Source: a bacterium (lineage in GTDB: Bacteria; Patescibacteriota; Minisyncoccia; Phycocordibacterales; Phycocordibacteraceae). Taken from it: a DNA stretch of 64,000 nucleotides. Positions within the stretch are counted from its first letter, which is position 1, and each line of letters begins with the position of its first letter. Below are positions 3,831-45,311 of the stretch, piece by piece. The position numbers and the translations under genes are program-made. Under the pieces are notes generated by a model. It saw only the letters and a program-made list of their open reading frames with translations, was not told the origin of the DNA and searched no databases. Location: NCBI GenBank assembly GCA_023269085.1, contig JAHFML010000001.1, positions 11,966 to 75,965 of the forward strand. Reading direction: 5' to 3'.

Positions 3831-5075
3831 CTAGGCGCTAGGCGCTAATAACGCCTCACGTGATTTCTTTTCAACTTTTCCCGTCGCCCGATCGACCACC
3901 TCGAAGACGCCACTCGCGACCGCCTCGCGACCGACGATGACGCGCTTCGGGATGCCGAGTAGATCGCTCTCGGCAAATTTCTCGCCCGCGCGCAGGTCGC
4001 GATCATCGTACAAGACCTCGACACCGGCTTTTTGCAAATCGACATACAGCGCCTCAGCGACTTTTGAGATTTCATCATCACCCTTACCGAGGGAGACGAG
4101 ATGCACCGCAAAGGGCGCGACGCTCAGGGACCAGACGAGGCCTTTTTCGTCGCCAAATGTTTCTGCGATGACACCCATGAGGCGCGAGATGCCGATGCCG
4201 AAACAGCCCATGATCGGGAGTTGGTCCTTCCCCTCCCTATCTTTATACGTGAACGAAAAATCTTTGGCATATTTTGTACCAAGATCAAAAATGTTGCCTA
4301 CCTCGGAAGCCTTCGCGCGCGAAAGTTCTCCCGCGTTACAACGGGTGCAAGCGTTGCCTTCTTTCTGATCGCTGATCTCAGCGTTGACGCAATAGGAGCA
4401 GTGATTGCAATACAAAATGTCATCTTCACCCGCGTCGGTGAGCACCATGAATTCATACGAGAGCTTCGTCGTGAACGCGCCTCCTGACGCTTCGGTCGCC
4501 TTCGCAATTAGGCCGAGGCGTGAGTATATTTTCAAATAGGCTTCTTTCACCTCTGCATAGAACCGATCGAAATCTTCTTGTGTCTCGTGGAAGGAGTACA
4601 TGTCCTTCATCGTGAACTCGCGACCGCGCATGATGCCGCTCTTGGCGCGGAGCTCATCGCGGTATTTCTGCCCGATCTGATAGATGGCAACGGGCAGATC
4701 TTTATACGAAGTGAGATATTCGCGCGCGATCGGCGTCACTATTTCTTCTTCGCTCTGGCCGACTGTGTACTCCTTTTCAGTTCGACTCATGAGTTTGAAC
4801 ACGACATCGACTGAATCCCACGCGCCCGTCTGCTTCCACGGCTCGCTCGGGTGCAGAGTCGCCATGCGAATCTCTTGTCCTCCAACCGCATCCATCTCTT
4901 CGCGCACGACACGCTCAATCTTTTCGAGCACGCGGCGACCAAGCGGCAGATACGAATAGACACCCGCCATCTCCTTGTGCACGAAGCCCGCGCGCACGAG
5001 GAGCTGGGCGTTCTTCGAGACTTCGTCGGCGGGTGCCTCCCGCCGCGCCTTGGTGAAGAGCTGTGATTGTCGCAT
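3831..5075 (-). CDS. proS: Prolyl-tRNA synthetase. No INS editing domain; a Cys4 (CxxC...CxxC) insertion sits in its place.
   Basis: Class II aaRS motifs (FTMKDMYSF; GCFGIGISRLMG) and a C-terminal anticodon-binding domain. Start taken at ATG 5075 (MRQSQLF). The part of the ORF upstream of that is Arg/His-rich read-through. Confidence 0.85.
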   Translation of the reverse strand: MRQSQLFTKARREAPADEVSKNAQLLVRAGFVHKEMAGVYSYLPLGRRVLEKIERVVREEMDAVGGQEIRMATLHPSEPWKQTGAWDSVDVVFKLMSRTEKEYTVGQSEEEIVTPIAREYLTSYKDLPVAIYQIGQKYRDELRAKSGIMRGREFTMKDMYSFHETQEDFDRFYAEVKEAYLKIYSRLGLIAKATEASGGAFTTKLSYEFMVLTDAGEDDILYCNHCSYCVNAEISDQKEGNACTRCNAGELSRAKASEVGNIFDLGTKYAKDFSFTYKDREGKDQLPIMGCFGIGISRLMGVIAETFGDEKGLVWSLSVAPFAVHLVSLGKGDDEISKVAEALYVDLQKAGVEVLYDDRDLRAGEKFAESDLLGIPKRVIVGREAVASGVFEVVDRATGKVEKKSREALLAPSA

Positions 5076-5107
5076 GCTCTGTAGTATACGCCCGCTTAGT
5101 GCGCAGA

Positions 5108-5161
5108 GCAAAACAAGGTCGAACCTTAAATCCGAATCCTCAAGGTTCGACCTTGTTTTGC
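5108..5161. repeat. Palindromic hairpin element, family B copy 1: a perfect 20-bp stem (gcaaaacaaggtcgaacctt / aaggttcgaccttgttttgc) with a 14-nt loop
   Basis: Seen directly in the sequence. Lies between the rseP stop (5162) and the proS start. Related copies occur at 10228-10269 and 63732-63774. Confidence 0.8.
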
Positions 5162-6259
5162 TCACCCAACAATCTTGAAAATGTCGTGGGCGGTGATGAC
5201 GAGCATGAGGAGGATGAGGAAGGCGAAACTCACGGCATTTACATTTTGTGCGATGCGCGCTTTGATCGGGCATCGGGTGATACCTTCGATAATCACGAAG
5301 AGGAGACGACCGCCGTCGAGTGCAGGGATAGGGATGAGGTTGATGAGGGCGAGATTAATCGAGATAATAGCCATGATTGAAAGGAGATCGCCGATACCTT
5401 GTGCCGACGCGTTCCCGACGACGCCCGCGATGCCGACCGGCCCCGAGACCTGCGAGAGATCAGCCGAGAAGGTGAAGACGCCGTAGAAGAAATGCGCGAG
5501 CCCGGTCGCGGTGAGCACCGTCGCGCCCCACGTGAGCGACGCGCCTTGCACGAGTGACTCGGTGAAGGAGAGCGGCACGACCCCGATGGTCGCCACCGAG
5601 ACCCCGAGCGCGTAGCGCGAGGGGTCAGCGGGAACGACGCCCGCCGCGGGCGCCGCGACGACACTCTTCTCTTGCCCGTTACGCTTCACCTCAAGCGTGA
5701 CCTCGTGCCCGTCGCTCGCGGCGATGAAGGTCGAGAAGCTCTTCGGGTCGGCGGCATGCCACGCTCCCAGCATGTCCGGCGTGTTCACCACCACTTTAAG
5801 AATCGAGTCGCCCGGGAGAAGCCCAGCGCGCGCGGCGGGAGAACCGGGGAGCACGTCGGCGACCGCGAGCTCTGTGTGCGTCGCGGTCGCGACCTCGCTC
5901 TCGTCGAGCGCGCGCGGCGTGCCCGCGACAAGCGCGCCCGTGATGAGCACATACGCGAAGAGCATGTTCATCGCGATGCCAGCGACCAGCACGACGGCTT
6001 GCAAGATACGCGGCTTTGACGTGAACGAACGTTCGCCCTCTGCGCCGTCTTCGCCATATATCCGCACGAAGCCGCCGAAGGGCAGCCAGTTGAGCGTGTA
6101 CTCGGTCCCGCCCCACTTCCCTATCGTGAGAGCCTTCGGCGGGTAGCCAAGGCCGAACTCGTCGACGCGCATGCCCGAGAGCTTCGCGGCGATGAAGTGC
6201 CCGAGCTCATGCACCACGATGAGCGCAACGATGACAATGACAAAAATGAGGATATGCAT
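5162..6259 (-). CDS. rseP: RIP metalloprotease RseP (site-2 protease, M50 family)
   Basis: HELGHF zinc motif in TM1, a PDZ-like middle region, and a C-terminal LDGG motif. 365 aa. Confidence 0.85.
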   Translation of the reverse strand: MHILIFVIVIVALIVVHELGHFIAAKLSGMRVDEFGLGYPPKALTIGKWGGTEYTLNWLPFGGFVRIYGEDGAEGERSFTSKPRILQAVVLVAGIAMNMLFAYVLITGALVAGTPRALDESEVATATHTELAVADVLPGSPAARAGLLPGDSILKVVVNTPDMLGAWHAADPKSFSTFIAASDGHEVTLEVKRNGQEKSVVAAPAAGVVPADPSRYALGVSVATIGVVPLSFTESLVQGASLTWGATVLTATGLAHFFYGVFTFSADLSQVSGPVGIAGVVGNASAQGIGDLLSIMAIISINLALINLIPIPALDGGRLLFVIIEGITRCPIKARIAQNVNAVSFAFLILLMLVITAHDIFKIVG

Positions 6260-6265
6260 TATTTA

Positions 6266-6817
6266 TTACTGTGCTATTTCGGTCTCCTTTTTCTCCAGAT
6301 GCTTGGCGAAGGAGTCGTTGCCAAGGTCGATGAGCTTCTGCACCTCGGTCTTGAGCCGTGCGACTTCGTCCTTGCCCATGCCGCCCTCCTTCTCGGCGGC
6401 GTCGAGCGCCTTGATAGCGTCGGTGCGATGTCCGCGGAGCGTCACGCGCGCCTGTTCGGTGCGGTCGCCCGCGATCTTCGAGAGCTGGGTGCGTCGTTCG
6501 CTCGTGAGCTCGGGGAATGAGACTCGCAAGCCCTGATCGTCCGTCGAGACACCGACGCCGAGATCTGCTTCGACAATCGCCTTCTCGACTGCTTTGGTAA
6601 GTGACTTGTCCCACGGGACGATGCGGAGCGTGCGGGCGTCTTCGACCGAGATCGCCGCGATATCGCGAAGCGGCGAGCGCGTGCCATAGGCCTCGGCCTT
6701 GACCCCGTCGAGCAGGGTCGGCGTCGCGCGGCCCGTGCGCACGCCCGAGAGCTCGCGCCCGAGCCACTCCTCGGTTTCGCTAATCTGCTCCTTCAATTTT
6801 GAAAAGTCGTATGCCAT
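6266..6817 (-). CDS. frr: Ribosome recycling factor
   Basis: 183 aa with an RRF-typical sequence (VRTGRATPTLLDGV...). Confidence 0.9.
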   Translation of the reverse strand: MAYDFSKLKEQISETEEWLGRELSGVRTGRATPTLLDGVKAEAYGTRSPLRDIAAISVEDARTLRIVPWDKSLTKAVEKAIVEADLGVGVSTDDQGLRVSFPELTSERRTQLSKIAGDRTEQARVTLRGHRTDAIKALDAAEKEGGMGKDEVARLKTEVQKLIDLGNDSFAKHLEKKETEIAQ

Positions 6818-6826
6818 ATGTGTGGA

Positions 6827-7528
6827 TTATAGCAGACCCTGCGGCGTCACGAGCGAGAGGTGTTCGAGAATCATCTTGACCGGCGCCGAACGGTCGTAGA
6901 GATACCCGCGCAGAGTTGCGATGTCGGACAAAAGCGCCGTGTGTCTTTGTATCGAAGTCTGACTTCGATACGCGGCCACCTCGATACCGTTCAGGAGCGC
7001 GATAGCCTCGTCGCGGTGCGCGCGACGCTCATCGTCATCCTTCCCACTCGCAAGCTTCTTCGCGATAGTGGTGCGCTTTTCTTTTGTCGCGGTGATGAAT
7101 TCTCGCGCGATCTCGGGAATAATGTGGGACATCGTAAGTCCCACATTGGATGTAGGACTTACGATGTCCGACATTGAGAGCACCTGCACGCGGGAGCGAA
7201 GCGTCGGCAAGAGCCCGCCGAGTGTCGGGAAGATGAGGAAGAGATGCGTGCCAAAAGGCGGCTCCTCGAAGACTTTGAGGAGCGCATTTTGCGCTTCGTG
7301 ATAGGCACGCGAAGCCGCGATGATAATCACGCGATGCTCACCCGCGAATGCCGCCCCCGCGGCGAGCTCCGTTACTCGCCGCGCATCTGCGACCGAGAAG
7401 AGACCGTACTGCAAAACGACTACATCGGGATTCCCCTCCGCTTTCATGCCCAAGTCGCGCTCGGCAAAGCCGAGCGCGACTGCTATCCCTTCCTCTGCCT
7501 CTCCCTCTATGACAAACGCGTGGTGCAT
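6827..7528 (-). CDS. holB: DNA polymerase III delta-prime subunit-like protein (clamp loader, no P-loop)
   Basis: NALLKVFEEPP box and SRV(Q) motif. No Walker A. 233 aa. Carries an in-frame palindromic insertion at 7131-7179. Confidence 0.65.
   Translation of the reverse strand: MHHAFVIEGEAEEGIAVALGFAERDLGMKAEGNPDVVVLQYGLFSVADARRVTELAAGAAFAGEHRVIIIAASRAYHEAQNALLKVFEEPPFGTHLFLIFPTLGGLLPTLRSRVQVLSMSDIVSPTSNVGLTMSHIIPEIAREFITATKEKRTTIAKKLASGKDDDERRAHRDEAIALLNGIEVAAYRSQTSIQRHTALLSDIATLRGYLYDRSAPVKMILEHLSLVTPQGLL
7131..7179. repeat. Nested palindrome inside the holB coding sequence: 15-bp arms ggacatcgtaagtcc / ggacttacgatgtcc (7137-7151 / 7165-7179) with a 13-nt loop, plus an overlapping aatgtggg / cccacatt pair
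   Basis: Seen directly in the sequence. The holB reading frame stays open through it. Confidence 0.8.
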
Positions 7529-7567
7529 CTGTCGATTATAGCTTGCTTTCCCCCACCCGCGTGGCGC

Positions 7568-7596
7568 TTGACTTTTTGTAGTGAGTGTGGTAGCTT
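7568..7596 (+). promoter_or_regulatory. Candidate sigma70-type promoter: -35 ttgact, 17-nt spacer, extended -10 tgg tagctt
   Basis: Spacing and hexamers read directly. Lies about 35 nt upstream of ATG 7631. Confidence 0.35.
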
Positions 7597-7630
7597 ATCC
7601 TCACGGACTAATGTTGGTCCGTGCAACCGA

Positions 7631-7873
7631 ATGGAGTCAATCATGTTGACCGAAGAGAGAAAAGGCCAAATCGCTCTGTTGTTCCTGAAAGACAAGATCC
7701 GTAACGAGGGTCTCAAGTTAAGTAAGGACAATAAGCGTCAAATCGGTAATACCGCCAAGTCGCTCGGCATCAATCCCGAAGAGGCAACGGAATTCGCCGA
7801 ATTGTTGGTGCGGGAATTCGTGGACGAAGTCTTTCCGCCAAAGGAAATGACTTGCAATAAGGTCCGGACATAA
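7631..7873 (+). CDS. Hypothetical small protein (80 aa)
   Basis: ORF beginning MESIMLTEERKG. Followed by an intrinsic terminator. No recognisable domain. Confidence 0.35.
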   Translation: MESIMLTEERKGQIALLFLKDKIRNEGLKLSKDNKRQIGNTAKSLGINPEEATEFAELLVREFVDEVFPPKEMTCNKVRT

Positions 7874-7973
7874 TCTGTCAGCGACAGGGTGAGCCATGAG
7901 GCTCCTAAACGGGTAATTGTACCTCCTCTCTTTTGAGAGCAAGGACAGAACAAGAACCGCGCCCCTCGCTTTA

Positions 7974-8000
7974 GGCCGCTCGCTTGCGAGCGGCCTTTTT
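7974..8000 (+). terminator. Rho-independent terminator (ggccgctcgc ttg cgagcggcc followed by ttttt)
   Basis: GC-rich 10-bp stem plus T-run, seen directly. Confidence 0.7.
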
Positions 8001-8005
8001 CGTTC

Positions 8006-9031
8006 TTACTGCTTCGCCAAGATGCTTTTTTGATAGGTGTTCAAATGCTTGAGCGCAATGCCGGTACCGCGCGCGACGCAGTAGTAGGGGTCTACAGCAA
8101 GCTTCGCGATGACGCCCGTGCGGCGGAACATGAGCTCGGGCATCTGGCGCAATTGCGACGAGCCGCCCGTGAGGATGATGCCGTTGTCGATGATGTCGGC
8201 CGCGAGCTCGGGCGGCGTATCTTGAAGCACTTTGCGCACCGCGTGCGTCATCTCGCGGAGCTCGCGCGCCATCGCCTGCACGATGTCGTTGCTCGAGATC
8301 TCGACCGTGCGCGGGAGGCCCGAGATCATGTCGCGCCCTTTGACCGCCATCGTGAGCTCTTCGGTCAAGGGCACCGCCGCGCCGATAGTTATCTTCACCT
8401 CCTCGGCCGTCTTGTCGCCGATCGAGAGATTGTGATGCTTCTTCACATGGTCGACGATGGCGCGATCGAGCCTATTCCCCGCACACTTCACGCTGGTCGA
8501 GGCGACGATACCGCCGAGCGAGATCACCGCGACATCGATCGTCCCGCCGCCGATGTCCGCGACCATGCGCCCCATCGGCTCGTGAATAGGGATGCCCGCA
8601 CCGATAGCCGCGAGGATAGGCTCCTTGACCACATACGCATTCTTCGCCCCCGCCTTGAGCGCCGCTTCGATGACCGCCCGCTTCTCGGTCGAGGTGACGC
8701 CTGCCGGCACCGAGACGAGCACCGTCGGCTTGAAAGGATTCATTCCGAGCGCGCGCCGCATGAAGTAGCGCAACATCGCCTCGGTCACGCGATAGTCCGC
8801 GATAACGCCGTCCTTCATCGGGCGATAGGCGATGATGTCCTCGTGCGTGCGGCCGATCATCTTCTTGGCTTCGAGGCCAATGGCGAGGATCTTGTTCTTG
8901 CCGCGGAGCCCGCGCTCGCGCGAGACTGCAACAACCGAGGGCTCGTTGATCACCACCCCCTTGCCGGGGACGAAAACGAGGACATTCGTTGTGCCAAGAT
9001 CGATACCAAGCTTTGGGGAAAACCAACTCAT
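8006..9031 (-). CDS. Second MreB/Mbl-family actin-like protein (paralog)
   Basis: 341 aa: GIDLGTTNVLVFV, DIGGGTIDVAV. Clearly homologous to the MreB at 2767-3819 but diverged. Confidence 0.85.
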   Translation of the reverse strand: MSWFSPKLGIDLGTTNVLVFVPGKGVVINEPSVVAVSRERGLRGKNKILAIGLEAKKMIGRTHEDIIAYRPMKDGVIADYRVTEAMLRYFMRRALGMNPFKPTVLVSVPAGVTSTEKRAVIEAALKAGAKNAYVVKEPILAAIGAGIPIHEPMGRMVADIGGGTIDVAVISLGGIVASTSVKCAGNRLDRAIVDHVKKHHNLSIGDKTAEEVKITIGAAVPLTEELTMAVKGRDMISGLPRTVEISSNDIVQAMARELREMTHAVRKVLQDTPPELAADIIDNGIILTGGSSQLRQMPELMFRRTGVIAKLAVDPYYCVARGTGIALKHLNTYQKSILAKQ

Positions 9032-9174
9032 TGCGGTAATGGTACACTACTCCTCATGCAAGGCGAAATGAACTTCAGCATCGAGGGCGGGTTGTCGCTC
9101 TCCGGTACGATGGCGCTACGGTATGACGCAAAACGAAACCGACTGTCTCCAGCCGGTTTATTTCGTCTTTAGTT

Positions 9175-9396
9175 TCAGTTCCTCCTTCTTGCTTCTTCCC
9201 GGAGGGCTTCTACCCTGTCTTCGGCAATATCGAAATCTTTAGTCGCCTCCGCAAGCTTAGAAACTTCGTGACCGACACCTTCATGGATGAGCCTCGCGAC
9301 CTGTTCTGAGCATCTTTTTGCTTCAGAAACAGCTTGGCCCAAGCGCGTCATGAGATTATCTTCCTTCAGCAACAAGTCTTTCATAATGAACTCCAA
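9175..9396 (-). CDS. Hypothetical small coiled-coil protein (73 aa)
   Basis: ORF only. Charged, helical composition. Confidence 0.3.
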   Translation of the reverse strand: MEFIMKDLLLKEDNLMTRLGQAVSEAKRCSEQVARLIHEGVGHEVSKLAEATKDFDIAEDRVEALREEARRRN

Positions 9397-9619
9397 AGAA
9401 CTAACCGTTTTCAGACTACCCTTCTAGGAAGGGATTCGCAATACGCACAGCGCGAGACTTTGGTAGTTATGTCCTCGCCAAGCAAGTCATCGAAGACCTC
9501 GTTGCCGCTCGAGTGATTGGTCTCGGATCCGCGAGCTGATGCTCGCCCGAATACCGGCGACCCTTCCCAGGGTCGCCGGAGTTGTTTTTATCCTGCGCCG
9601 ATGCGAGTACAATGAGCCT

Positions 9620-9904
9620 ATGAAATCCATCGGCGAGATGATGCCGGAGTTTGAGCGAAGACAGACGGCCGCGCCGAAGGGGCGGAAGCGTCTCACCGAG
9701 CGCGGTGAGCTGATGAAGTTTTTTTTACGCCATGTGAATCACGCCCGAGCGCGCGACGGCCTTGAGCCGATGACCATGGCGCACATGGGCGTCACGCTCG
9801 AGCAGATCCCGACGGCCGATCTCTATTATCTGAAAAGCGTTTGCAGTCAGGCTAAAGATTTCTCCAAGCGCTTCTGGTGGGAGCTCGACCCCGACAAACA
9901 CTAA
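9620..9904 (+). CDS. Hypothetical protein (94 aa, start at MKSIGEMM)
   Basis: ORF. The longer upstream extension of the track ORF is unlikely to be coding. A REP copy follows its stop. Confidence 0.35.
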   Translation: MKSIGEMMPEFERRQTAAPKGRKRLTERGELMKFFLRHVNHARARDGLEPMTMAHMGVTLEQIPTADLYYLKSVCSQAKDFSKRFWWELDPDKH

Positions 9905-9914
9905 CCTTGGCAAC

Positions 9915-9937
9915 GGGTGGACACCTAGTGTCCACCC
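9915..9937. repeat. REP-like palindrome gggtggacac-cta-gtgtccaccc, copy 1
   Basis: 10-bp stem with a 3-nt loop. Core 14-mer gacacctagtgtcc is shared by six sites in the window. Confidence 0.85.
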
Positions 9938-9940
9938 GAG

Positions 9941-9959
9941 TTGGACATCGGATGTCCAA
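9941..9959. repeat. Second palindrome ttggacatc-g-gatgtccaa adjacent to REP copy 1
   Basis: 9-bp arms. Shares ggacatcg/gatgtcc with the holB-internal element. Confidence 0.6.
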
Positions 9960-9999
9960 GTTAGTGCGACCGTGCCGTTTTCTGCTACAATCACGAGAC

Positions 10000-10566
10000 A
10001 TGAAAGAAATCGTGCAAGACGGAGCACCGGTGCTCCGCGATATCGCGAGTCTCGTCCCCGAGGACATGTTCGGCGGCCATGAGCTCGCGCAGATTATCGC
10101 CGACATGAAGACCGCCCTCGACCCCGAGCTCGAGGGCGTCGCTATCGCCGCACCGCAGATAGGCGTCTCGTATCGCATCTTCGTCGTGCGCAAGGATCGT
10201 ACCGTGACCCCTCCGCCGATGGACGACCAAGGTTCGACCTTAGCCCGAGATTCTCAAGGTCGAACCTTGAATGCGCCAAGCTACGAAGTCTACATCAATC
10301 CTGAAATTATAAAGACCTCGCGACGGCGCGCGAGCGTCGACGAAGGATGTCTCTCGGTGCGCGGTATCTACGGCTCGACACGGCGACATGAGCGCGTCAC
10401 CGTTCGCGCGCGGAATAGTGATGGCTCCCGCTTCGAGCGCGGCGGCGGCGGCATCATGGCGCAGATATTCGAACACGAGGTCGACCATTTGAACGGCATC
10501 CTCTTCACCGACCATGCCGAGCGTCTTGTCCACATCGAACATGAACCAAATGAGCGTATCACCTAA
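10000..10566 (+). CDS. def: Peptide deformylase, carrying an in-frame insertion of about 14-16 aa derived from a palindromic element
   Basis: Motifs GVAIAAPQIG, EGCLS and HEVDHLNG in the canonical order. Start taken at MKEIVQDG. Confidence 0.85.
   Translation: MKEIVQDGAPVLRDIASLVPEDMFGGHELAQIIADMKTALDPELEGVAIAAPQIGVSYRIFVVRKDRTVTPPPMDDQGSTLARDSQGRTLNAPSYEVYINPEIIKTSRRRASVDEGCLSVRGIYGSTRRHERVTVRARNSDGSRFERGGGGIMAQIFEHEVDHLNGILFTDHAERLVHIEHEPNERIT
10228..10269. repeat. Palindromic hairpin element, family B copy 2, located inside the def CDS (arms caaggttcgacctt / aaggtcgaaccttg, 14-nt loop)
   Basis: Seen directly. 42 nt. Lies between def motifs 1 and 2, where this Def is about 16-20 aa longer than the E. 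coli spacing (recalled from memory). Confidence 0.8.
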
Positions 10567-11377
10567 GTTTGCCTTCTTCGGCACGCCGGCTGTTGCGGCG
10601 ACAACGCTTGCACATCTTATTGAAAACGATTTTATCCCAACACTCGTCGTCACCTCGCCCGACGCACCGCGCGGGCGTGGCCTTGTCCTAACTCCGTCGC
10701 CGACCAAGGTGCTCGCGCTCGAAAACAGCATCCCCGTCATGACACCGAGCGTGCTCGACGAAAGTGCTATTGCTGATATTAAAAAATATACTTGCGAATA
10801 CGCCGTCGTGGTCGCCTACGGCAAGATATTCCCCGACGCGTTCTTCACTGTGTTTCCTCGAGGCATGTTGAATGTGCACTACTCTCTCTTGCCGAAATAT
10901 CGCGGCGCGACGCCGCTCGAAACCGCACTCTTGCGGGGCGAAAAGGAAACTGGTGTGACAGTACAGAAGGTCGTGTGCGAGGTGGACGCGGGTGATATTC
11001 TCGCACAAGAAGCGATTCAAATTGGTGCGGGAGAAACTGCGCGCACTCTCCGACCGCGACTCATCGAGATGGGCGCTGAGCTCCTCGTCGCGACGCTTCC
11101 GGCATTTGAGCGTGGCGAGGTCCGCGCCGTGCCGCAAGACTCCTCTCGCGCCACGCGCGCCTACAAGATAAAAAAAGAAGACGGCCTCCTCGACCTCGCG
11201 GGAGATGCACGAGAGAATTGGAACAAGTATCGCGCCTACGCCGACTCTATCGGCACATATTTTATGAAAGAGGGGAAACGAGTGAAGATTACGGACGCGG
11301 AATTTGTCCGTCAGCCGACGGACAAATTCCGCGTCCTGCGCATCATCCCCGAGGGCAAGCGCGAGCAAGACTTCTAA
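10550..11377 (+). CDS. fmt: Methionyl-tRNA formyltransferase
   Basis: N-terminal FFGTP formyl-transferase fold, SLLPKYRGA motif and a C-terminal domain. Overlaps the def end by about 17 nt. Confidence 0.85.
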   Translation: MSVSPKFAFFGTPAVAATTLAHLIENDFIPTLVVTSPDAPRGRGLVLTPSPTKVLALENSIPVMTPSVLDESAIADIKKYTCEYAVVVAYGKIFPDAFFTVFPRGMLNVHYSLLPKYRGATPLETALLRGEKETGVTVQKVVCEVDAGDILAQEAIQIGAGETARTLRPRLIEMGAELLVATLPAFERGEVRAVPQDSSRATRAYKIKKEDGLLDLAGDARENWNKYRAYADSIGTYFMKEGKRVKITDAEFVRQPTDKFRVLRIIPEGKREQDF

Positions 11378-11724
11378 CGGCCGAAGCGCAGCATCCGCTT
11401 GAGCGCTGCGCCGCCGCGCCGCACGAAGCCGCGCTTCTTCCCTTGCGAGTTCTGCACCTCGCGCACGAGGTCATCACGCACCCGATCGACCGCACCCTCT
11501 AGGGTCGAGCTCTCGGCCTCGGCACGGAAGAGCTTCCCCTGCAGCGAGAGATTCCCCTCGGCATGATACTTCGCACCCGCGCGCTCGACCGCGATCGACT
11601 GCTCGATCTCACAGGTGAGCGCGCCGTCACCGGCAAACTTCTCAAGCGCTGAAAACTTCTCTTCGATAAGCTCCCGCATCGAGAGCGGCAGTTCGTGATT
11701 CGTTGCTTTGATAGTGATATTCAT
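11374..11724 (-). CDS. hpf: Ribosome hibernation promoting factor / ribosome-associated inhibitor A family
   Basis: 116 aa, MNITIKATNHELP..., a typical YfiA/HPF fold sequence. Confidence 0.75.
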   Translation of the reverse strand: MNITIKATNHELPLSMRELIEEKFSALEKFAGDGALTCEIEQSIAVERAGAKYHAEGNLSLQGKLFRAEAESSTLEGAVDRVRDDLVREVQNSQGKKRGFVRRGGAALKRMLRFGR

Positions 11725-11735
11725 AGTGCAGAATC

Positions 11736-11954
11736 TTAGTTGCTAACCCCTACCATTTTACCTCGAGAACGGTGTCCTGTCAGGATATGCACATCCTCAA
11801 CCCGTGCGCCGAATCGGAGCGCGACGAGCTCGCAGACCCGCCTATTCGCATGGTTCCCGCTCGCCGGCTCTCGCACGGCAATAAGGAGCGTGTCGCCCTT
11901 TTCTTCGACACTCTCCCGCCGCGCCCCCGGCGTCACGAATACTTTGAGGTACAT
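11736..11954 (-). CDS. YggU-like DUF167 protein
   Basis: 72 aa from M(YLKVFVTPGARRESV...GNHANRRVCELVA). The rest of the track ORF is Arg/Ser-rich and unlikely to be coding. Confidence 0.5.
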   Translation of the reverse strand: MYLKVFVTPGARRESVEEKGDTLLIAVREPASGNHANRRVCELVALRFGARVEDVHILTGHRSRGKMVGVSN

Positions 11955-12018
11955 AGGCGCATGATAGCAAACAACAACGCGCGCCGCAGAGCGGCGCGCG
12001 TTGTGCTTTTTGATCTCG

Positions 12019-12228
12019 TTAGATCTTGCTTGCGTTGAGAGCGTTCTTGCCCTTCGGGCTGTCACCGATCTCGAACGAAAGCCTGTCCCCTTCGCGAAGC
12101 TCGTCGAACGAAATGTTCTGGAGCTCGTTGGAGTGGAAGAAGAGGTCCTTGTCACCGGCGGCGGCACCATCAATCTTGATGAAGCCGAAGCCGTTGTCAT
12201 TCTTCTTGACGACTGTTCCTTGTGTCAT
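12019..12228 (-). CDS. Cold-shock protein (CspA family)
   Basis: 69 aa. GFGFI (RNP1-like) and DLFFHSNEL motifs. About 120-nt 5' leader. Confidence 0.85.
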   Translation of the reverse strand: MTQGTVVKKNDNGFGFIKIDGAAAGDKDLFFHSNELQNISFDELREGDRLSFEIGDSPKGKNALNASKI

Positions 12229-12349
12229 GCTGTGAAATGAAATATTCGACTAAAGTATCAATTCAGGCGCCGAAGATAGAAGCTCGATCCCACTTCTCTG
12301 GATCCAACTCTGGTTGATGTATTGAGCCTATCATGCCTCAATTATTTTG

Positions 12350-13342
12350 TCAAATCGCATTCAACGCGGTGCGGGTGCGCGGGCCGACCGAGCCGACCAC
12401 TTCGAGCCCGTGCGCTTTTTGAAAGTTCTTCACCGCGGCGGCCGTGAGCGTGCCATAGTAGCCGGTTATGGGGCCGGCGTAGACACCAAGCGTCGTGAGC
12501 TTGTTCTGGAGCGCCGTCACGGCCGCGCCGCGCGAGCCGAGAGCGAGATAGGTGGTGAAGCGGTAGGCGCTCGTGTTCGCGCTCGGAGTTGCCGGCGCCG
12601 TACTCGGCGCCGGAGTGGTTGGCGCGGGCGCTGTCGTTGCCACCGCGCTCGTGGTCGTCGCGACGTTTGGCGTCGTCGACGCGACAGGATTGATCACCGT
12701 CACCGGCACGATCGTCTGCGCGCTGTGCCCCTGAGAGTCCCACGCGCGCACCGTGAGCGCATGCGTCCCCAAGTCATCGGTGGTCGGCTTCCATGAAAAC
12801 GCACCGTTCGCATCGACATTGCTCTGTACGAGCGTCGTCATCGCCGTCGCATCATAGACGCCATAACTCGGCATGACGAAGCCGGGCGCCACAATACTGA
12901 AGGTGACAGGACTGCGCACCACGACCGTCCCGCTCGTTGGCAACAAATTAGACACGACAACGGTCTTACTCGTGACGATAATCGTCACGGTCGACGATGC
13001 GGCGTGCGTATAGGCATCGCTCACCGAGACCATAATAACGTGCCTCCCTGCGTCCCCCGACGCGGGCGTCCATGTGAAGAACCCGATGTTGTCGATATGC
13101 CCGCCCGGCCCAGCGGCTATCGCGGCAGTCGGCGCGAAGGCGTCGGCGATCTGGTAGACCGGATCGATGAACCCTGACGCGAGCGCTGAAAACGAGACTG
13201 GAGTCCCCGGATCAATCGCACCCATGGGCGACACCCCGGCGATATAGACTGATCCGCCCGCCGCGTGCGCTCGCGCAGTAACGCCGACACAAGAAATAAG
13301 TATACAGAGACTGAAAACAAGCCCGCATGATATATATTTCAT
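12350..13342 (-). CDS. Secreted repeat protein with a C-terminal peptidoglycan-binding (PG_binding_1-like) domain
   Basis: Signal peptide, Ig-like repeats, Thr/Pro/Ala linker, C-terminal YAGPITGYYG...NFQKAHGL. Confidence 0.55.
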   Translation of the reverse strand: MKYISCGLVFSLCILISCVGVTARAHAAGGSVYIAGVSPMGAIDPGTPVSFSALASGFIDPVYQIADAFAPTAAIAAGPGGHIDNIGFFTWTPASGDAGRHVIMVSVSDAYTHAASSTVTIIVTSKTVVVSNLLPTSGTVVVRSPVTFSIVAPGFVMPSYGVYDATAMTTLVQSNVDANGAFSWKPTTDDLGTHALTVRAWDSQGHSAQTIVPVTVINPVASTTPNVATTTSAVATTAPAPTTPAPSTAPATPSANTSAYRFTTYLALGSRGAAVTALQNKLTTLGVYAGPITGYYGTLTAAAVKNFQKAHGLEVVGSVGPRTRTALNAI

Positions 13343-19810: not shown

Positions 19811-20159
19811 GAAAAGACTCTGGCATAGAGAACGGCCGCACCCGTATCGCCAACACGCCCTGCTTCTGCTCATCTTCGCGTGAATAGTATTGGTACATGG
19901 CCGAATACTCTTCTCTGCTCGCGCGTCCATACTGCTCGGGCGGGAATGCCGCATAGAGTTCTTGGAAGGTTGCAAATTGCAGGAGCTCCGATACTTCTGT
20001 CTCAATCTTTTGCTCTGGATCAGTCGCGAGTGAGAATTCTATCTCGTCGCCCACCTTCAGGAGCTGGCGCTTCTCGTCGTTGAGCCGAGCTTCAATCGTC
20101 TTACTCCCCTCTCGCATCTTCTCAAACTGATCGGGCTGTAATTTCATTTGGTGCTTCAT
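19803..20159 (-). CDS. ASCH (PUA-like) domain protein
   Basis: KTIEARLNDEKR...VGDEIEF pattern typical of ASCH. 118 aa. Confidence 0.55.
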   Translation of the reverse strand: MKHQMKLQPDQFEKMREGSKTIEARLNDEKRQLLKVGDEIEFSLATDPEQKIETEVSELLQFATFQELYAAFPPEQYGRASREEYSAMYQYYSREDEQKQGVLAIRVRPFSMPESFHV

Positions 20160-20222
20160 GTTGCGACTATTCTATATCAAAACCTGATCCCCGCCTCACC
20201 AACATAGTGGACGGGGACAAGA

Positions 20223-20789
20223 TTAAATATTCATACTTTGGTTGCGGAGATTCGTTTTAACTTCCTTATAGTTAGGAAGCATCTTGCCAACAAGACTCCA
20301 AAACTTCTTTGAATGATTGAATTCGCGCAGATGGCATAACTCATGGACGATCACATAGTCACGAGCGTCCATGGGCAGAAAGAGTATCTTGTAATTGAAA
20401 TTAAGATTCCCTCTCTTTGAGCAACTTCCCCACCGAGTCTTCTGATTTTTAATGTTGATCTGACTGAAGCTGAACTGGTAGATAGTATTAAAGTAATTTA
20501 CTCGTTCTACTGCGAGCGCATATGCTTCGTCCTTATATTTCAAGTAATCAGCCTTGCTATGACGAGCGACCGCCTTCCCGCTGAACTGTTTGAAGAACGC
20601 AATCTTTTTGAAAAGCCAGTCTGTCTTCTCTCGAATAAACTTTTCGACAACCGTCTCCTTGAGATCAAAGGGCGACGTGACCACAATCGTACCGTCACAA
20701 TATACTGCGAGACGCATCCTGCGAGCGCGATGACTTTTCCGAAGTGTATAGGTGATCTTTTTATCCTGAAGAGCTATTTGTTTCTCCAT
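20223..20789 (-). CDS. DUF45/YgjP-like zinc metallopeptidase (M48-like), the kind often linked to type I R-M loci
   Basis: WGSCS...YVIVHELCHLREFNHSKKFW signature. Lies immediately downstream of hsdR. Confidence 0.75.
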   Translation of the reverse strand: MEKQIALQDKKITYTLRKSHRARRMRLAVYCDGTIVVTSPFDLKETVVEKFIREKTDWLFKKIAFFKQFSGKAVARHSKADYLKYKDEAYALAVERVNYFNTIYQFSFSQINIKNQKTRWGSCSKRGNLNFNYKILFLPMDARDYVIVHELCHLREFNHSKKFWSLVGKMLPNYKEVKTNLRNQSMNI

Positions 20790-20791
20790 GA

Positions 20792-23698
20792 TTAGAATTT
20801 CTTCATTACAATATCGACCAAACGATTGAGATATTTGTGGAAGTCACTGACCTGAATACGATCCCGATACTCCTTAAGAACCAGCTCCTGCACGATGCGC
20901 TTCACCTCTTTCAAGAATTCATCGCGCTTGGATGACTCCTGCCATCCCTCGTCGAGAATATTTTCGAGACGATTGGTCATGTCCTTGATGAATTCACGAA
21001 CAATATCTTTATCTCCCCCAACGAACTCCGTCGAAACGACATAGAGACCGTACTCCTTGAGTGAATACCCGAGCTCTTTAGCTTCATCGCCTTTCTTCTT
21101 TATGTCGGCAAGGAGCTCCTGATACCGCTTGATGCGTTCCGAGAGATCAATCTGGTGCTGCTCGAATTCTTTGCGGATTAATCCCAGACGCTCACTGAAC
21201 TTTTTATACGCCGGATTCGTGTCTATGTTGATTGAGATCTCTTGTTTGAGCATCTTCTCGAGATTGAGTGCTTTCTCTTCGTCATCCATCTTGTTGAGCC
21301 GCTCCATGACATAGAGATCATTCACATTGAGCTCGCGGAAGTTCTTGGTGATACCTTCGTAATCAACGCGTTGCTGTATGAGTAGCTTCACCTTCTCCCC
21401 ATACTCCGCGAGAAGTTCAGCATCTGACATCTTCTCGCTGTACTCCTTTTCGAAGGCGAGATAAACGCTCGTAAGCCACTCGAATGTTCGCACAGACTCT
21501 TTCAAGAAAGGATCCGGCGAAAGAATCTCAAACAGAAGTTTGAGCCGTGCATATTTGCCCCGGAAGAACTTCTGCTTGTCGAGATTCTCTGCAAAGATCT
21601 TGAGACATCGACGCAAGTTATCAATAGACGGATCTTCGATATTAATGCCCGTAAAGATATCCATGGTCTCTCTAAGCACCTCGATAAATTCTTCTTTGAG
21701 TTTATCGATATTGAGCATCGCCGAATCAACGATACTCTCGTCAAAATTGAGTGCTTGATAGAGACTCTTGGTAATGCCGTAATAGTCGATGACCTTCCCT
21801 GCCCCCTTGTTTGGATAGACCCGATTGGTGCGCGCAATCGCTTGGAGCAGATTGTGATCCCAAAGCGGCTTGTCGAGATACATCACTTGTTCAACTGGCG
21901 CGTCAAAACCAGTCAGAAGCATGTCGCAGACGAGCAAGAATTTGAGTGAGCTGGTTGGGTTCTTGAATTCGTTGATTATCTTCTCACGCTTCGCCTTTGT
22001 CGTATTGTACTTACGCAAGTCCTCTGAATCCGTATTCGGGTCACCCGGCGAATAAACCACTTCTGACCATTCCTTCGGTACCAGTTGGTCGAATAACTTT
22101 TTATACTTTGCGACTGCCTCGCGGTCATAACAAACAACCTGCGCTTTGAATCCAGACGGCTCTACATACAGACGGTAATGCTCGACAATGTCCCGAGCCA
22201 CCGCCTCCATACGTCGGTCGAGCTTCACGATTGCTTCTTTCTTTCCATACTTCTTTGCCACCACATCACGCTCCTTATCTGAAAGGTCGGTCGTTAGCTC
22301 TTCGAACTGCTTATCGAGCTTCTCGTCATCAATAAAGAATTTAGAAAGCCGCGCTTCGTAGGTCACAGGGAGCGTTGCGCCATCATCGATAGCTTGTTGG
22401 ATGGAATAGTAATCCAAGTATCGCTCTCCTTCTTCTCCGAAGTTGCGGTGCGTATTGAGAGTAACTCGATCGATCGGAGTACCAGTGAAGCCAAAGAAGA
22501 ACGCATTCTTCATCGCGCTTCGCAGATTGATAGCCGACACGCCCTCGTTGTCGCGATGCGCTTCATCCGAGAGCACGATGACATTCTCATCGAGATTCTC
22601 GATATCCTTACCAAGTTCCGAGAACTTCTGGATAGTCGTGATGAAAACTCCACGCTCCGGTGACTGTATTTTCTTCTCCAAATCAGCTCGCGACTCCACC
22701 CGAACCACATTTTTACCGCCGCAATTGACGAAGGTCTCATATATCTGGTCATCAAGATCAATGCGGTCGACGAGAATGAATACCTTCGGATTCTTGAGCT
22801 CTTTGTTGTAGCGGAGCTTCCATGCGGTGAAGAACATGGTGAGCGACTTCCCCGAGCCTTGGGTATGCCAGATGAGCCCGCGCTTTTTATCTCCTTCAAG
22901 CACCCGCTCGACAATCTTGTTGGTAGCCCGCAATTGCTGATATCGCGCGATCTTCTTGATCGTCTGTTCCTTCTCCTTCTCGAAGAGAATAAAGTTCTGA
23001 ATGATATCCAGAAGTCGCTCCTTCTCAAGAAGCGAGACGAGTGTCGCCTCAAGATTCCCTTCTTCAGATTTCTCAAGTTCATCATCTTTCCATTCCAAGA
23101 AGTACTGCACTGGCGCATAAGTTGCTCCATACACTGTCTTCAATCCGTCAGTCGCTACATTGAAACAGTTTGGCCAAAAGAGTTTAAACGCGTTCCGCTC
23201 GTAACGCTTGATCTGTCCGACTGCGTTTGCATAATCCACATTAGTTGCAGCTGTAGGGCTCTTGGCCTCTATATCGACTACTGGCAAGCCGTTCAGAAAT
23301 ATCATTATGTCCGGGCGGATGTTTTCGGAATTACCCTCAAAATAGAACTGATTAGTGACGACGAAGTGATTATTGGCAGGAGTAGTAAAATCTACGATGA
23401 AGTAGTCGCGCATTTTGCCCGTCTGCGGATCCTTGAGATTTACCCCATTGCGCATGACATTCAAGAACGCCTCATTGTTATCGACCTTCTTCACCTCGCG
23501 CACTACCGAAAGTGCCTCGTCATCTTCAATTCCGTTTATCTTCTTCACCGCTTCGAGCAAAAGCGATGTAATGATGTATTCATTCTCAAACTCGCGCAAT
23601 TTCGCAAATTCCGTAGGCACAACATATTCGTATCCCAAACGCTCCCGAAGAAACTTCAGGATATGATTCTCGACCGTGTATTGTTCGTTGAATTTCAT
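20792..23698 (-). CDS. hsdR: Type I restriction enzyme R subunit (HsdR)
   Basis: 968 aa. Walker A HTQGSGKSLTM and DEAH box (LSDEAHR). N-terminal nuclease region. Helicase motifs. Confidence 0.9.
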   Translation of the reverse strand: MKFNEQYTVENHILKFLRERLGYEYVVPTEFAKLREFENEYIITSLLLEAVKKINGIEDDEALSVVREVKKVDNNEAFLNVMRNGVNLKDPQTGKMRDYFIVDFTTPANNHFVVTNQFYFEGNSENIRPDIMIFLNGLPVVDIEAKSPTAATNVDYANAVGQIKRYERNAFKLFWPNCFNVATDGLKTVYGATYAPVQYFLEWKDDELEKSEEGNLEATLVSLLEKERLLDIIQNFILFEKEKEQTIKKIARYQQLRATNKIVERVLEGDKKRGLIWHTQGSGKSLTMFFTAWKLRYNKELKNPKVFILVDRIDLDDQIYETFVNCGGKNVVRVESRADLEKKIQSPERGVFITTIQKFSELGKDIENLDENVIVLSDEAHRDNEGVSAINLRSAMKNAFFFGFTGTPIDRVTLNTHRNFGEEGERYLDYYSIQQAIDDGATLPVTYEARLSKFFIDDEKLDKQFEELTTDLSDKERDVVAKKYGKKEAIVKLDRRMEAVARDIVEHYRLYVEPSGFKAQVVCYDREAVAKYKKLFDQLVPKEWSEVVYSPGDPNTDSEDLRKYNTTKAKREKIINEFKNPTSSLKFLLVCDMLLTGFDAPVEQVMYLDKPLWDHNLLQAIARTNRVYPNKGAGKVIDYYGITKSLYQALNFDESIVDSAMLNIDKLKEEFIEVLRETMDIFTGINIEDPSIDNLRRCLKIFAENLDKQKFFRGKYARLKLLFEILSPDPFLKESVRTFEWLTSVYLAFEKEYSEKMSDAELLAEYGEKVKLLIQQRVDYEGITKNFRELNVNDLYVMERLNKMDDEEKALNLEKMLKQEISINIDTNPAYKKFSERLGLIRKEFEQHQIDLSERIKRYQELLADIKKKGDEAKELGYSLKEYGLYVVSTEFVGGDKDIVREFIKDMTNRLENILDEGWQESSKRDEFLKEVKRIVQELVLKEYRDRIQVSDFHKYLNRLVDIVMKKF

Positions 23699-23704
23699 AT
23701 TCGT

Positions 23705-24595
23705 TTATTTCTTCTGTCCATTTCTTAAGATGACAAAACGTATTAGCGAGCCGGTCATGCTAACTACCATCTCCGAATCGTCTCTGTTAAATTCTTTGCA
23801 TGTACCGTGCTTTATTTCATCCATCCAGTTGCGTAAGTTTTTGAAAAGTTCTTTTTGATGACCATTCAATCCTAGAGCTTTTGAGTCGGTCTTGTCTGAT
23901 ATATGCTTAAAACCTTTTTCTCTTTTGCCAGATACTGATTTTACCAACTCATCGCAAGCCGTGTACATGTCCTCAATAACATCTTTGTAGTGCGCTTGTG
24001 TCTTCGCTGTCAAAAATTCCTTTAGCCCATTTTCAAAATGAGAAAGAACGTGTTCAAATCTTTCGTCCGTCTCTAGTAATCCAAGGGTATTTTTAATATC
24101 CGTCTCAAATTTCTTTGAAGTAGTTGGCAAGATCTGTGGCGCTTTTCGTTTATAGATCTTTATGGTCACCCCTAGCATAGGAAAATCATTGAGATATTTT
24201 TCTATACGTTTCGCAAGTTGATCTAATTCAGCTCGCACAAAATCATGTTCTGCTACAACATTCAGCAATACTTGTAATCGCAACAAATATTCTTCGAAAG
24301 ATCCTGAGAAACGGTCTGATATCTCACCGTCAATCATTCGCTTCAATCCAGATGAATAATCTGTGCCATACCAATCGTCGATATCAAAAAATAACTGGCG
24401 ACACACTTCATCTAATATAGCCGACTGAAGTTCCCAGAGTTTTGTACTGTCTTGATACACACTAGGAGAGATGATCGGCCCCAATGCATCGATGATTTCA
24501 CCCTTTAAATATTTCTTGCACCCGACTCGAACACTCTCAATATTGAGTTTGAGTCCAAAGCGGGAATATAAATCTTGATTTGTATTATTGTTCAT
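23705..24595 (-). CDS. Hypothetical 296-aa protein embedded between hsdS and hsdR
   Basis: Translationally coupled with hsdS (ATGA overlap). Lys/Glu-rich and helical. No motif recognised by eye. Its position suggests a defence or abortive-infection passenger. Confidence 0.5.
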   Translation of the reverse strand: MNNNTNQDLYSRFGLKLNIESVRVGCKKYLKGEIIDALGPIISPSVYQDSTKLWELQSAILDEVCRQLFFDIDDWYGTDYSSGLKRMIDGEISDRFSGSFEEYLLRLQVLLNVVAEHDFVRAELDQLAKRIEKYLNDFPMLGVTIKIYKRKAPQILPTTSKKFETDIKNTLGLLETDERFEHVLSHFENGLKEFLTAKTQAHYKDVIEDMYTACDELVKSVSGKREKGFKHISDKTDSKALGLNGHQKELFKNLRNWMDEIKHGTCKEFNRDDSEMVVSMTGSLIRFVILRNGQKK

Positions 24596-25809
24596 ACTTT
24601 TACTCTTTGCTTTCCACTCAACAAATCCTGCATCAGACCTTTTTTCAGTCCTGTGAGTTTTTCCTTCAACTCCTGATTGATCGTCATTTTATCGTCAACC
24701 GATGAAAGCACTTCGGAGATTTTCTTAATCTCATCAATGTTTGATGGCTTCGGAATTGGAATGGAGAACAGCCTATCCTTGTTGAGTTTTGGTTGAGCCA
24801 TGCCAGTTAGAAAAGGCTCGAGATTGATCATATTCAGATAGTCTTGTATATACTTCTGAAGAAATCGATCTTCAAACCTTTGAAGGTGTGCATGATTATT
24901 TACCCAATATTTTCCAATAGCAGTAAAAGCAATCGGGTAATTCCTATCTTTTAGATTCGCGCCATCTTCTGAAATCAAGAGCAACTCTTCATCAAATATA
25001 TAGTCGCCAACATAATCCACAATTCCTGTTGCCCCATAATAAGGATAAGATCCTGATTCACGCTTTGATTTGGTAATAGGAATTCGCTTGTTATCTAGAT
25101 TAGATGAAATATCATTTAGGTTCACAATTTCCCAATCTCTTGGAATCTCACCGATCTCAGTTTTCTTATATTTTGTATGGCCAATGCCTTTGGTAAAAAG
25201 TTGCTGTGTCAGTCCGTGCTTGAGCTTTTTGGTCATAGCAATAATCTCGTCAGTTTTCTGAATTTCTTCATCGACAGAGGTGAGAATCTCAGCAATCTTC
25301 TTTTGTTCCTGCTTGGACTCTGGGAAGAGTATGCTTACTCCCAGAAAATCGTGCTTGGATAGATTAAAACGTGTACTACCTTTTGCATGCGCAGCAATTT
25401 CTTTCCTGAAGACAGACCCTCTGAAAAGGTAGCCTCCGAAAGTTGGATCGAGCAGGTCCTTCTCGGGACGGAATATGAAACAGAAACTGTTCAAATACAA
25501 TTCCACTGGGTCCGAGACCACAGCGGAAGACATTCCGACCTCCTCCGGAGTTTCAGAGCTGGTCGTAAAAATATAGTCCCCATACCGTATCTGATTTTGT
25601 CTCTCTCCATCTTTTATCTCCACGAGGTTAGTAAAATCTTTGTCAAGATGAGGATTACGAAAGACATTCATGTATGGAATGAATGGTCTTCCACTACCAA
25701 AATCTTTCTTAGATTTCCCAGTAAGACCTCCTAAGGTATTACCTAGATCCTCAAGCTTTACTCGTTTCCACTGTGGAGGAACGTTGCGTTGTGAAAGTTT
25801 ACTACTCAT
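24592..25809 (-). CDS. hsdS: Type I R-M specificity subunit (HsdS)
   Basis: Two target-recognition domains separated by conserved helical spacers. Start taken at MSSKLSQRN. Confidence 0.8.
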   Translation of the reverse strand: MSSKLSQRNVPPQWKRVKLEDLGNTLGGLTGKSKKDFGSGRPFIPYMNVFRNPHLDKDFTNLVEIKDGERQNQIRYGDYIFTTSSETPEEVGMSSAVVSDPVELYLNSFCFIFRPEKDLLDPTFGGYLFRGSVFRKEIAAHAKGSTRFNLSKHDFLGVSILFPESKQEQKKIAEILTSVDEEIQKTDEIIAMTKKLKHGLTQQLFTKGIGHTKYKKTEIGEIPRDWEIVNLNDISSNLDNKRIPITKSKRESGSYPYYGATGIVDYVGDYIFDEELLLISEDGANLKDRNYPIAFTAIGKYWVNNHAHLQRFEDRFLQKYIQDYLNMINLEPFLTGMAQPKLNKDRLFSIPIPKPSNIDEIKKISEVLSSVDDKMTINQELKEKLTGLKKGLMQDLLSGKQRVKV

Positions 25810-27616: not shown

Positions 27617-27623
27617 AGACGCA

Positions 27624-29447: not shown

Positions 29448-29502
29448 AGACGGTCTGCGTCATTCATTGGGTTATATGGAAACAGCCGCAATTCGCACCC
29501 CA

Positions 29503-30804: not shown

Positions 30805-30813
30805 GATTCGGTA

Positions 30814-45286: not shown

Positions 45287-45311
45287 CGGGTGGACACCTA
45301 GTGTCCACCCG
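45287..45311. repeat. REP-like palindrome, copy 2 (cgggtggacacctagtgtccacccg)
   Basis: Identical core. Lies immediately after the ROK stop and before the terminator hairpin. Confidence 0.85.

Follow-up and report, generated by a model that had tools for sequence, protein, structure and literature searches.

A REP-like palindromic doublet in the reading frame of holB in a Patescibacteria genome

We examined a palindrome inside holB, which encodes a DNA polymerase III delta-prime-like protein, in a 64-kb stretch of Patescibacteria DNA (the window, to which all coordinates refer) from contig JAHFML010000001.1. An earlier note, made from this sequence, had described the palindrome as a repeat lying in frame in the gene. 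holB is flanked by mreB on one side and by frr-rseP on the other, the best NCBIfam matches of its product are delta-prime models, and those of its homologs that carry names come from Patescibacteria (Kaiserbacteria, Paceibacterota, Minisyncoccota). Elsewhere the window holds copies of a repeat resembling repetitive extragenic palindromic (REP) sequences, two inverted units of which make up a REPIN, together with a gene for a Y1 transposase. Loci retrieved for comparison are labeled by L and a number.

The palindromic doublet and the loop that it encodes

The element comprises two inverted hairpin copies of about 25-27 nt, 28 nt apart, that share the core ATGTnGGAC-N7-GTCCnACAT (Table 1). On the coding strand the first unit reads ATGTCGGAC-ATCGTAA-GTCCTACAT and is followed by the spacer CCA and by the second unit, ATGTGGGAC-TTACGAT-GTCCCACAT. 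Because the 7-nt centers of the two units are mutually reverse-complementary, the pair can fold either as two small hairpins or as a single long one, with 26-nt arms complementary at 24 of 26 bases (92%) and a 3-nt loop. It is the longest inverted repeat of the whole window. Unit 7121-7147, which contains the nested pair AATGTGGGAC/GTCCCACATT, has a perfect 10-bp stem and a 7-nt loop, and its translation, N-V-G-L-T-M-S-H-I, follows the usual reading phase of the family described below; unit 7149-7175 has its own stem with one mismatch and is translated as M-S-D-I-V-S-P-T. The tetranucleotide GTAG is present in one holB unit, at 7152-7155, and in many orthologous units (ATGTAGGAC...), and is replaced by GTGG in the other holB unit and in the REPs of the window, the position (alignment column 6) being variable.

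The arm pattern GGACATCG...CGATGTCC was found in none of 100 shuffles. The RNA fold of the coding strand has a predicted energy of -45.3 kcal/mol, compared to -21.4 +/- 3.0 in shuffled sequences (z = -7.9, equaled by none of 200), and the corresponding DNA fold has z = -7.4. Most of the earlier note's description is borne out by these results: a palindrome does lie in the holB frame, its perfect 15-nt arms can be located (Table 1), the nested aatgtggg/cccacatt pair belongs to the 10-bp stem of unit 7121-7147, folding yields an exceptionally stable hairpin, and the palindrome-encoded peptide, SMSDIVSPTSNVGLTMSHI, does follow an SRC-like motif, immediately after TLRSRVQVL. The limits had been given as 7131-7179, which is a few bases off the true span of 7121-7175.

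An Rfam search of positions 5000-12500 with E values up to 1 gave no match at the element, and a scan of both strands of 6700-7700, a region also covered by a promoter scan, gave no terminator-like site. No slippery heptamer of the form X XXY YYZ was seen in the upstream CGC GTG CAG GTG CTC TCA when read by eye, without a formal scan. The Rfam search also returned sub-threshold matches to microRNA models at 5106-5163, a hairpin unrelated to the holB element.

At the protein level, the 55 nt of the element specify a 19-residue loop (HolB residues ~118-136) between a strand at 115-117 and a helix at 139-146. The AlphaFold2 model of HolB has a mean predicted local distance difference test score (pLDDT) of 86.7, and residues 122-134 of the loop fall below 50. 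In the ortholog profile LLPTLRSRVQ is aligned to LLATLRSRCR, residues 151-160 of Escherichia coli delta-prime (PDB 1a5t). In the delta-prime structure this position is the junction of domains I and II. Since a low-pLDDT loop between strand and helix sits at this junction, the element probably encodes a disordered surface loop in the domain I/II linker, after the SRC-type motif. It is probably a tolerated passenger, neutral for both the protein and the mRNA. All copies that we examined are in frame and without stop codons, which makes read-through translation a simpler reading than bypassing.

Table 1. Coordinates of the holB element, of related repeats and of the Y1 gene in the window. R1 is a covariance model trained on holB units only, from 21 species, with unit 7121-7147 included and unit 7149-7175 excluded.
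Feature	Position	Strand	Details	Model match
holB, DNA polymerase III delta-prime-like, 233 aa	6827-7528	minus		Pfam PF13177 DNA_pol3_delta2, 52.8 bits
Whole palindromic doublet, REPIN-like	7121-7175		Arms 7121-7146 and 7150-7175, loop 7147-7149; minus-strand translation (S)MSDIVSPTSNVGLTMSHI	
Perfect 15-nt arms GGACATCGTAAGTCC / GGACTTACGATGTCC	7127-7141 and 7155-7169		GGAC-N7-GTCC cores of the first and second unit	
Hairpin unit AATGTGGGACATCGTAAGTCCCACATT	7121-7147		3' unit on the coding strand	R1, 38.3 bits (training-set member)
Second unit GATGTAGGACTTACGATGTCCGACATT	7149-7175		5' unit on the coding strand	R1, 32.5 bits, E 2e-9 (outside the training set)
REP copy CGGGTGGACACCTAGTGTCCACCCG	9914-9938		GGAC-N7-GTCC geometry as in the holB arms	R1 at 9916, E 0.17 (weaker)
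Single intergenic hairpin of the same family, upstream of def	9937-9963		Core TTGGACATCGGATGTCCAA at 9941-9959	R1, E 1e-4
REP copy, identical 25-mer	45287-45311			R1 at 45286, E 1e-3
REP structure directly upstream of the Y1 gene	46174-46223		25-mer at 46192-46216 within a 24-nt-arm hairpin	R1 at 46191, E 2e-3
Y1/IS200-like HUH transposase, RAYT-like, 233 aa	46231-46932	plus		PF01797, 29 bits (cut-off 23 bits)
REP copy directly downstream of the Y1 gene	46947-46975		13-bp stem	R1 at 46948, E 4e-4

Turnover at one codon position among orthologs

We retrieved 80 holB loci and scanned about 70 orthologs over the 105 nt after the SR motif. In the protein alignment the segment following SRVQ(V/I)L varies in both length and sequence, some orthologs being shorter by ~11-13 residues. 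Ten of the scanned orthologs carry doublets of 17-26 bp and 11 carry single hairpins of 8-15 bp, nearly all of them perfect and located at the same codon position, with differing sequences. In the remaining orthologs the element has decayed or its place is taken by another palindrome, such as GGTATGATATATCATACC in L016, L029, and L060. The encoded peptides follow the local DNA palindrome and not a conserved protein motif, and the palindrome states are scattered across a neighbor-joining tree of HolB.

The closest relative, L085 (85% HolB identity), has another doublet in this position (site 1), AACTTGGACATCGGATGTCCAAGTTCTGAACTTGGACATCCGATGTCC, and the 19-mer unit that forms it is identical to the window hairpin at 9941-9959. 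We had considered slow compensatory point change at a fixed inherited sequence, which is excluded by this wholesale replacement of the unit. Nor is every doublet an exact inverted duplication, a possibility excluded by L086, in which two unlike unit types are joined. The ortholog alignment, with its variable region, its shorter members, and peptides that track the palindromes, supports the part of the earlier claim by which holB tolerates a repeat in frame; a recent insertion at this locus does not hold up, since the position is palindromic across the clade with turnover.

One might suppose that the loop has a function at the protein level and that its codons are palindromic by coincidence. 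The loop follows the SRC-type arginine-finger motif, in a functionally important region, and similar residues persist in certain orthologs that lack a perfect palindrome, as in L071 with NVGLPMPHI at the site. However, the L071 unit has two mismatches and is a decaying copy, the peptide is wholly different from one species to the next and in every case corresponds to what the local palindrome specifies, and the loop has pLDDT below 50 in the AlphaFold2 model. A chance palindrome is excluded by the shuffles, and an assembly artifact is contradicted by recurrence of the element, with reading frames intact, in independent NCBI, JGI, and ENA assemblies. We regard all three explanations as effectively refuted.

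The 27-nt units of 21 species, selected for having hairpins, could be aligned without gaps (consensus nATGTnGGACnTnCGAnGTCCnACATT). Over the 12 pairs of the stem, 88.5% of cells show pairing, a percentage inflated by this selection, compared to 33-42% in slid registers. Changes on both sides occur in 9 of the 12 pairs (46 cells), the covariation score was reached by none of 500 shuffles, and only two cells of the stem are G-U. Because wobble pairs are nearly absent, the symmetry appears to hold on both DNA strands, and the Watson-Crick-only covariation points to an element maintained at the level of DNA rather than by selection on RNA.

The same observations bear on the possibility that selection maintains an RNA structure in the transcript of holB-frr-rseP, for example to stabilize it, to mark a site of processing, or to pause ribosomes at the domain boundary; pairing and not sequence would then be what is selected. 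Such a structure would agree with the very stable fold (z = -7.9), the conserved position with covariation, and the location at a domain boundary, and REPs elsewhere have been proposed as RNA elements (PMC3733652). We nevertheless consider it improbable: G-U pairs are as scarce (two cells) as would be expected of a DNA element symmetric on both strands, the structure is missing or replaced by an unrelated palindrome in many orthologs, these units are also present between genes and inside unrelated genes (see below), and we found no Rfam match, no terminator-like tail, and, by eye, no slippery heptamer in the regions given above.

holB contains further palindromes. A second site, at 6949-6971 (GTATCGAAGTCTGACTTCGATAC), has an 11-bp stem and a 1-nt loop and specifies AYRSQTSIQRH in another variable loop of HolB; orthologs carry there either GGAC-type units (L008, L016, L026, L036, L057) or other palindromes (L019, L032, L071), with many hairpin tips reading TC(A/T)GA. 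Two perfect hairpins lie at 7358-7383 and 7453-7481, with stems of 9 bp and 13 bp and arms encoding ARRVTELAA and AVALGFAERDL, respectively; the hairpin DNA of the former is kept in at least six orthologs, and the latter site is palindromic in L021 and L058. As the arms encode conserved residues, these two hairpins look formed in place and not inserted.

A dispersed family and a candidate transposase

The holB palindrome is a member of a dispersed repeat family and is not specific to holB. The 64 kb hold seven units of the superfamily: two in holB, one at 9937-9963, and four REPs. After the holB units themselves, the next-best R1 matches in the window are the 9937-9963 hairpin and the REP copies, and the motif GGAC-N3-11-GTCC occurs 15 times against 7.3 expected. 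Identical sequences are also found at different sites and in different species. The 15-mer GGACTTACGATGTCC recurs in another genome as part of a 27-nt hairpin inside a called gene (L082, 2486-2512), and a doublet of ~49 nt is present twice within 4 kb of L027, in holB and at the def/fmt junction. The 25-mer ATGTAGGACGTAGTACGTCCTACAT occupies holB site 1 in L032 and site 2 in L057, and the 25-nt core ATAGGGGGTTTACGAAACCCCCTAT occupies site 1 in L043 and site 2 in L032.

Scanning metagenomes with the pattern ATGTNGGAC-N7-GTCCNACAT gave at least 85 matches in at least 80 loci. Among the matches listed, 69 of 85 units are internally palindromic (about 4% would be expected with random N positions), 50 of these 69 lie inside long open reading frames (ORFs), and 37 of the 50 share one phase, reading x-V-G-x-x-x-S-x-I/M. 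Pfam identified the hosts, again among the matches listed, as topoisomerase I (TopA), PheT, DnaX, TrmD, a ROK kinase, an S-adenosylmethionine (SAM) methyltransferase, a transketolase fusion, and an FAD oxidase. Several host sites recur across contigs with different units, for example the ...PNVLNLFG site of the methyltransferase.

The only Y1 gene of the window is bordered on both sides by the same REP, CGGGTGGACACCTAGTGTCCACCCG. Its product has the HUH motif NHFHIV and the tyrosine motif VYTMIKNP, and a PDB sequence search with it gave no match. We found 259 homologs, of which those named belong to Kaiserbacteria, Paceibacterota, or Patescibacteria. In four of four homolog contexts the gene is bordered on both sides by a species-specific hairpin of the form xGACAC-N3-GTGTCx, and the holB doublet of L021 is made of GGACACGCCGTGTCC units, exactly the GACAC type of these transposase-flanking hairpins. 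With respect to the earlier note, its half-site likeness to the hairpin at 9941-9959 (TTGGACATCGGATGTCCAA), next to the first REP copy, is real (R1 match, E 1e-4), and the further copies that a repeat implies are found at 9941-9959, in the four REPs, in the L085 doublet, and in metagenome genes. Its identification of the palindrome as a repeat therefore stands, but it left unconnected the Y1 transposase flanked by a related REP.

Several observations concern the Y1 gene and its relatives. In L007 a doublet with 23-bp arms (7997-8043; GACAC-TTA-GTGTC units, center ACATCCGATGT) lies in frame in a 286-aa ORF (CGHLVSTSDVDTKCPQ) and is a direct example of a REP of the type flanking REP-associated tyrosine transposases (RAYTs) occurring as an intragenic doublet. 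Y1 homologs at L082 10001-10705 and L083 3455-4156 occupy the same place, between T2SSF/PilC and prepilin genes; shared neighbors in two species fit vertical inheritance of a single-copy, domesticated transposase. Many Y1 homologs are found on contigs of just 1-2 kb, which would be expected if assemblies were interrupted at the flanking repeats. Directly downstream of the window Y1 gene, with only the REP hairpin between, is a gene for a PIF1-like helicase with a C-terminal helix-turn-helix domain (46979-48676, minus strand).

We think it likely that the holB palindrome is a DNA-level repeat of the REP/REPIN type carried in frame, and that its mobilization may have been RAYT-like. Perfect arms, Watson-Crick-only covariation, abrupt replacement, identical units elsewhere, and a preferred phase together argue for copy-and-paste or conversion among units at the DNA level. 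A RAYT-like enzyme, or recombination between dispersed copies, would act on hairpins in single-stranded DNA, and units would be copied into, or overwritten at, sites that are already palindromic. Survival would be limited to copies in permissive surface loops that keep the frame and are free of stop codons. The reuse of one codon position could be accounted for by a further process, either homing to palindromes already present or hairpin-templated repair.

A number of points weigh against this interpretation. Precise reuse of one codon position over a deep clade is atypical of REPINs, and simple transposition fails to explain it. The doublet has no second near-identical copy in the 64 kb, and what its relatives there (one single hairpin and the REPs) have in common with it is limited to the GGAC-N7-GTCC frame and a part of the stem. 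The sole NCBIfam match of the Y1 protein, NF047646 (REP-associated tyrosine transposase), scores 30.5 bits against a cut-off of 80, and the activity of this enzyme on the hairpins is putative. Translation through a hairpin of -45 kcal/mol is assumed, and the ascertainment bias in the covariation set must be counted here as well.

A competing explanation dispenses with the transposase. A linker hairpin forming in single-stranded DNA at replication could perpetuate itself at an inherited site, with template switching or hairpin-templated repair continually converting one arm to the complement of its partner while the sequence drifts, and with occasional inverted duplication of a unit. The conservation of the codon position across a deep clade, the nearly always perfect arms, and the Watson-Crick-only covariation would all suit such a process, as would the hairpins at 7453-7481 and 7358-7383, whose arms encode conserved residues as in formation in situ. 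Across the whole window, perfect hairpins with stems of 9 bp or more and loops of 9 nt or fewer number 30, compared to 0-4 in 20 composition-preserving shuffles; about half of the 30 are in long ORFs, and most are unique and GC-rich. The palindrome excess is genome-wide and extends beyond repeat families. A self-perpetuating palindrome, however, leaves unexplained the identical 19-25-mers across sites, genes, and species, both copies in L027, the abrupt replacement between the window and L085, and the features unrelated to pairing (ATGT, GGAC, and the 7-nt spacing) that are common to the transposase-flanking REPs. We therefore judge this explanation unlikely, though less so than a selected RNA structure.

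More tentatively, and with doubt outweighing belief, the REP/REPIN interpretation could be extended. The holB linker may be an ancient, heritable intragenic "landing pad" at which a domesticated, vertically inherited Y1 transposase keeps rewriting perfect palindromes in Paceibacteria-type Patescibacteria, by REP-into-REP homing or by hairpin-templated conversion at each site. Other such sites could include holB site 2, def, fmt, and the sites in the SAM methyltransferase, PheT, DnaX, and TrmD genes. If so, a position would remain palindromic across divergence at class level, even as its sequence and the protein loop turn over, amounting to transposase-driven evolution of protein loops and to a REP population that persists mostly inside genes.

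Palindromes of other kinds occur in the window. Three of them, at 10228-10269, 5106-5163, and 63732-63774, form a second REP-like family, CAAGGTTCGACCTT...AAGGTCGAACCTTG; two are just downstream of genes, and the first is in frame inside def, the peptide deformylase gene (DDQGSTLARDSQGRTLNA). Orthologs of def have other long palindromes at that site, before (E)VYINPE (L018 6942-6992, L026 7053-7095). In fmt, for methionyl-tRNA formyltransferase, a perfect palindrome with 20-nt arms and GGAC-N9-GTCC units lies in frame near the C-terminus (11293-11336, TDAEFVRQPTDKFRV), and different perfect palindromes are found at the same place in orthologs (L001 4185, L010 4795, L031 4949, L033 6039, L042 7275, and the distant L061 1504). 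The window also has low-GC islands at ~20000-31000 and 52000-56000 (GC content 0.40-0.50, compared to ~0.58-0.63 elsewhere). The second contains an ORF with SRA/Mrr-type restriction endonuclease domains (54937-55953), adjoining DUF3800 and DUF6941 genes, and is probably horizontally acquired defense DNA.

Comparison with known palindromic elements

The holB element resembles REPs and REPINs in its short hairpin unit and in the pairing of two inverted units into a longer hairpin. A tetranucleotide, GT(A/G)G, stands at the stem base of many units. The arrangement of an IS200-family Y1 HUH transposase flanked on both sides by hairpins of the family, with the same neighbors in L082 and L083, recalls REP/RAYT systems. 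Some differences are apparent. The units are smaller, at 25-27 nt. Their location in holB is intragenic and in frame, which departs from the extragenic definition, although intragenic REPs tagged with GTAG or CGTC, with many copies in genes for replication and repair, have been documented (Di Nocera et al., 2013; PMC3733652). Most palindromic metagenome units (50 of 69 among the matches listed) are in long ORFs with one preferred phase, and the same codon positions are held across a deep clade while unit subtypes turn over. Finally, the host belongs to the Patescibacteria, and the Y1 protein is divergent, scoring below the NCBIfam RAYT cut-off. A search of the available literature for REP/RAYT systems or in-frame palindromes in the candidate phyla radiation (CPR)/Patescibacteria returned nothing relevant.

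The closest parallel for palindromes in frame is the Rickettsia palindromic elements (RPEs; Ogata et al., 2000, 2002, as cited in PMC10969869 and PMC3733652). These are described as in-frame elements of ~100-150 bp in housekeeping genes of a small-genome bacterium, translated as extra peptides that form a conserved module and are considered tolerable where they lie on the protein surface (PMC10969869). They are CGTC-tagged, and no dedicated transposase has been identified for them (PMC3733652, PMC10969869). The likeness lies in the in-frame palindromes within housekeeping ORFs: holB, def, and fmt here, and TopA, PheT, DnaX, and TrmD in metagenomes. The holB element differs in its size (55 nt, 19 residues), in its GGAC-N7-GTCC consensus, and in the presence of a candidate transposase in the same window.

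The GC-cluster or "byp" palindromes of yeast mitochondria are also short, mobile, and located inside coding sequence, where they are skipped by translational bypassing and need not keep the frame. In contrast, the copies examined here are in frame and have no stop codons, and the genetic system is different. A dnaX-type frameshift hairpin differs in that we saw no slippery heptamer upstream (by eye) and no Rfam match, and an intrinsic terminator differs in that neither strand of 6700-7700 has a terminator-like site.

To our knowledge, REPs and REPINs are by definition regarded as extragenic, and in-frame palindromic elements are textbook matter only for Rickettsia. The significance of the present case is a REP-like family situated largely inside essential genes (clamp loader, topoisomerase I, tRNA synthetases) of a compact-genome candidate-phylum lineage, re-occupying the same loop positions in many species and accompanied by a candidate transposase. 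If confirmed, it would extend RAYT/REP biology to Patescibacteria and provide natural markers for permissive loops in essential proteins. Short variable inserts in these proteins would then be driven by DNA and not by the protein, a warning for annotators and phylogeneticists. Since intragenic REPs and in-frame RPEs have already been described, the kind of element is known; what differs here is the lineage, the very small unit, the mostly intragenic and phase-biased distribution, the reuse of sites with turnover, and the divergent Y1 protein.

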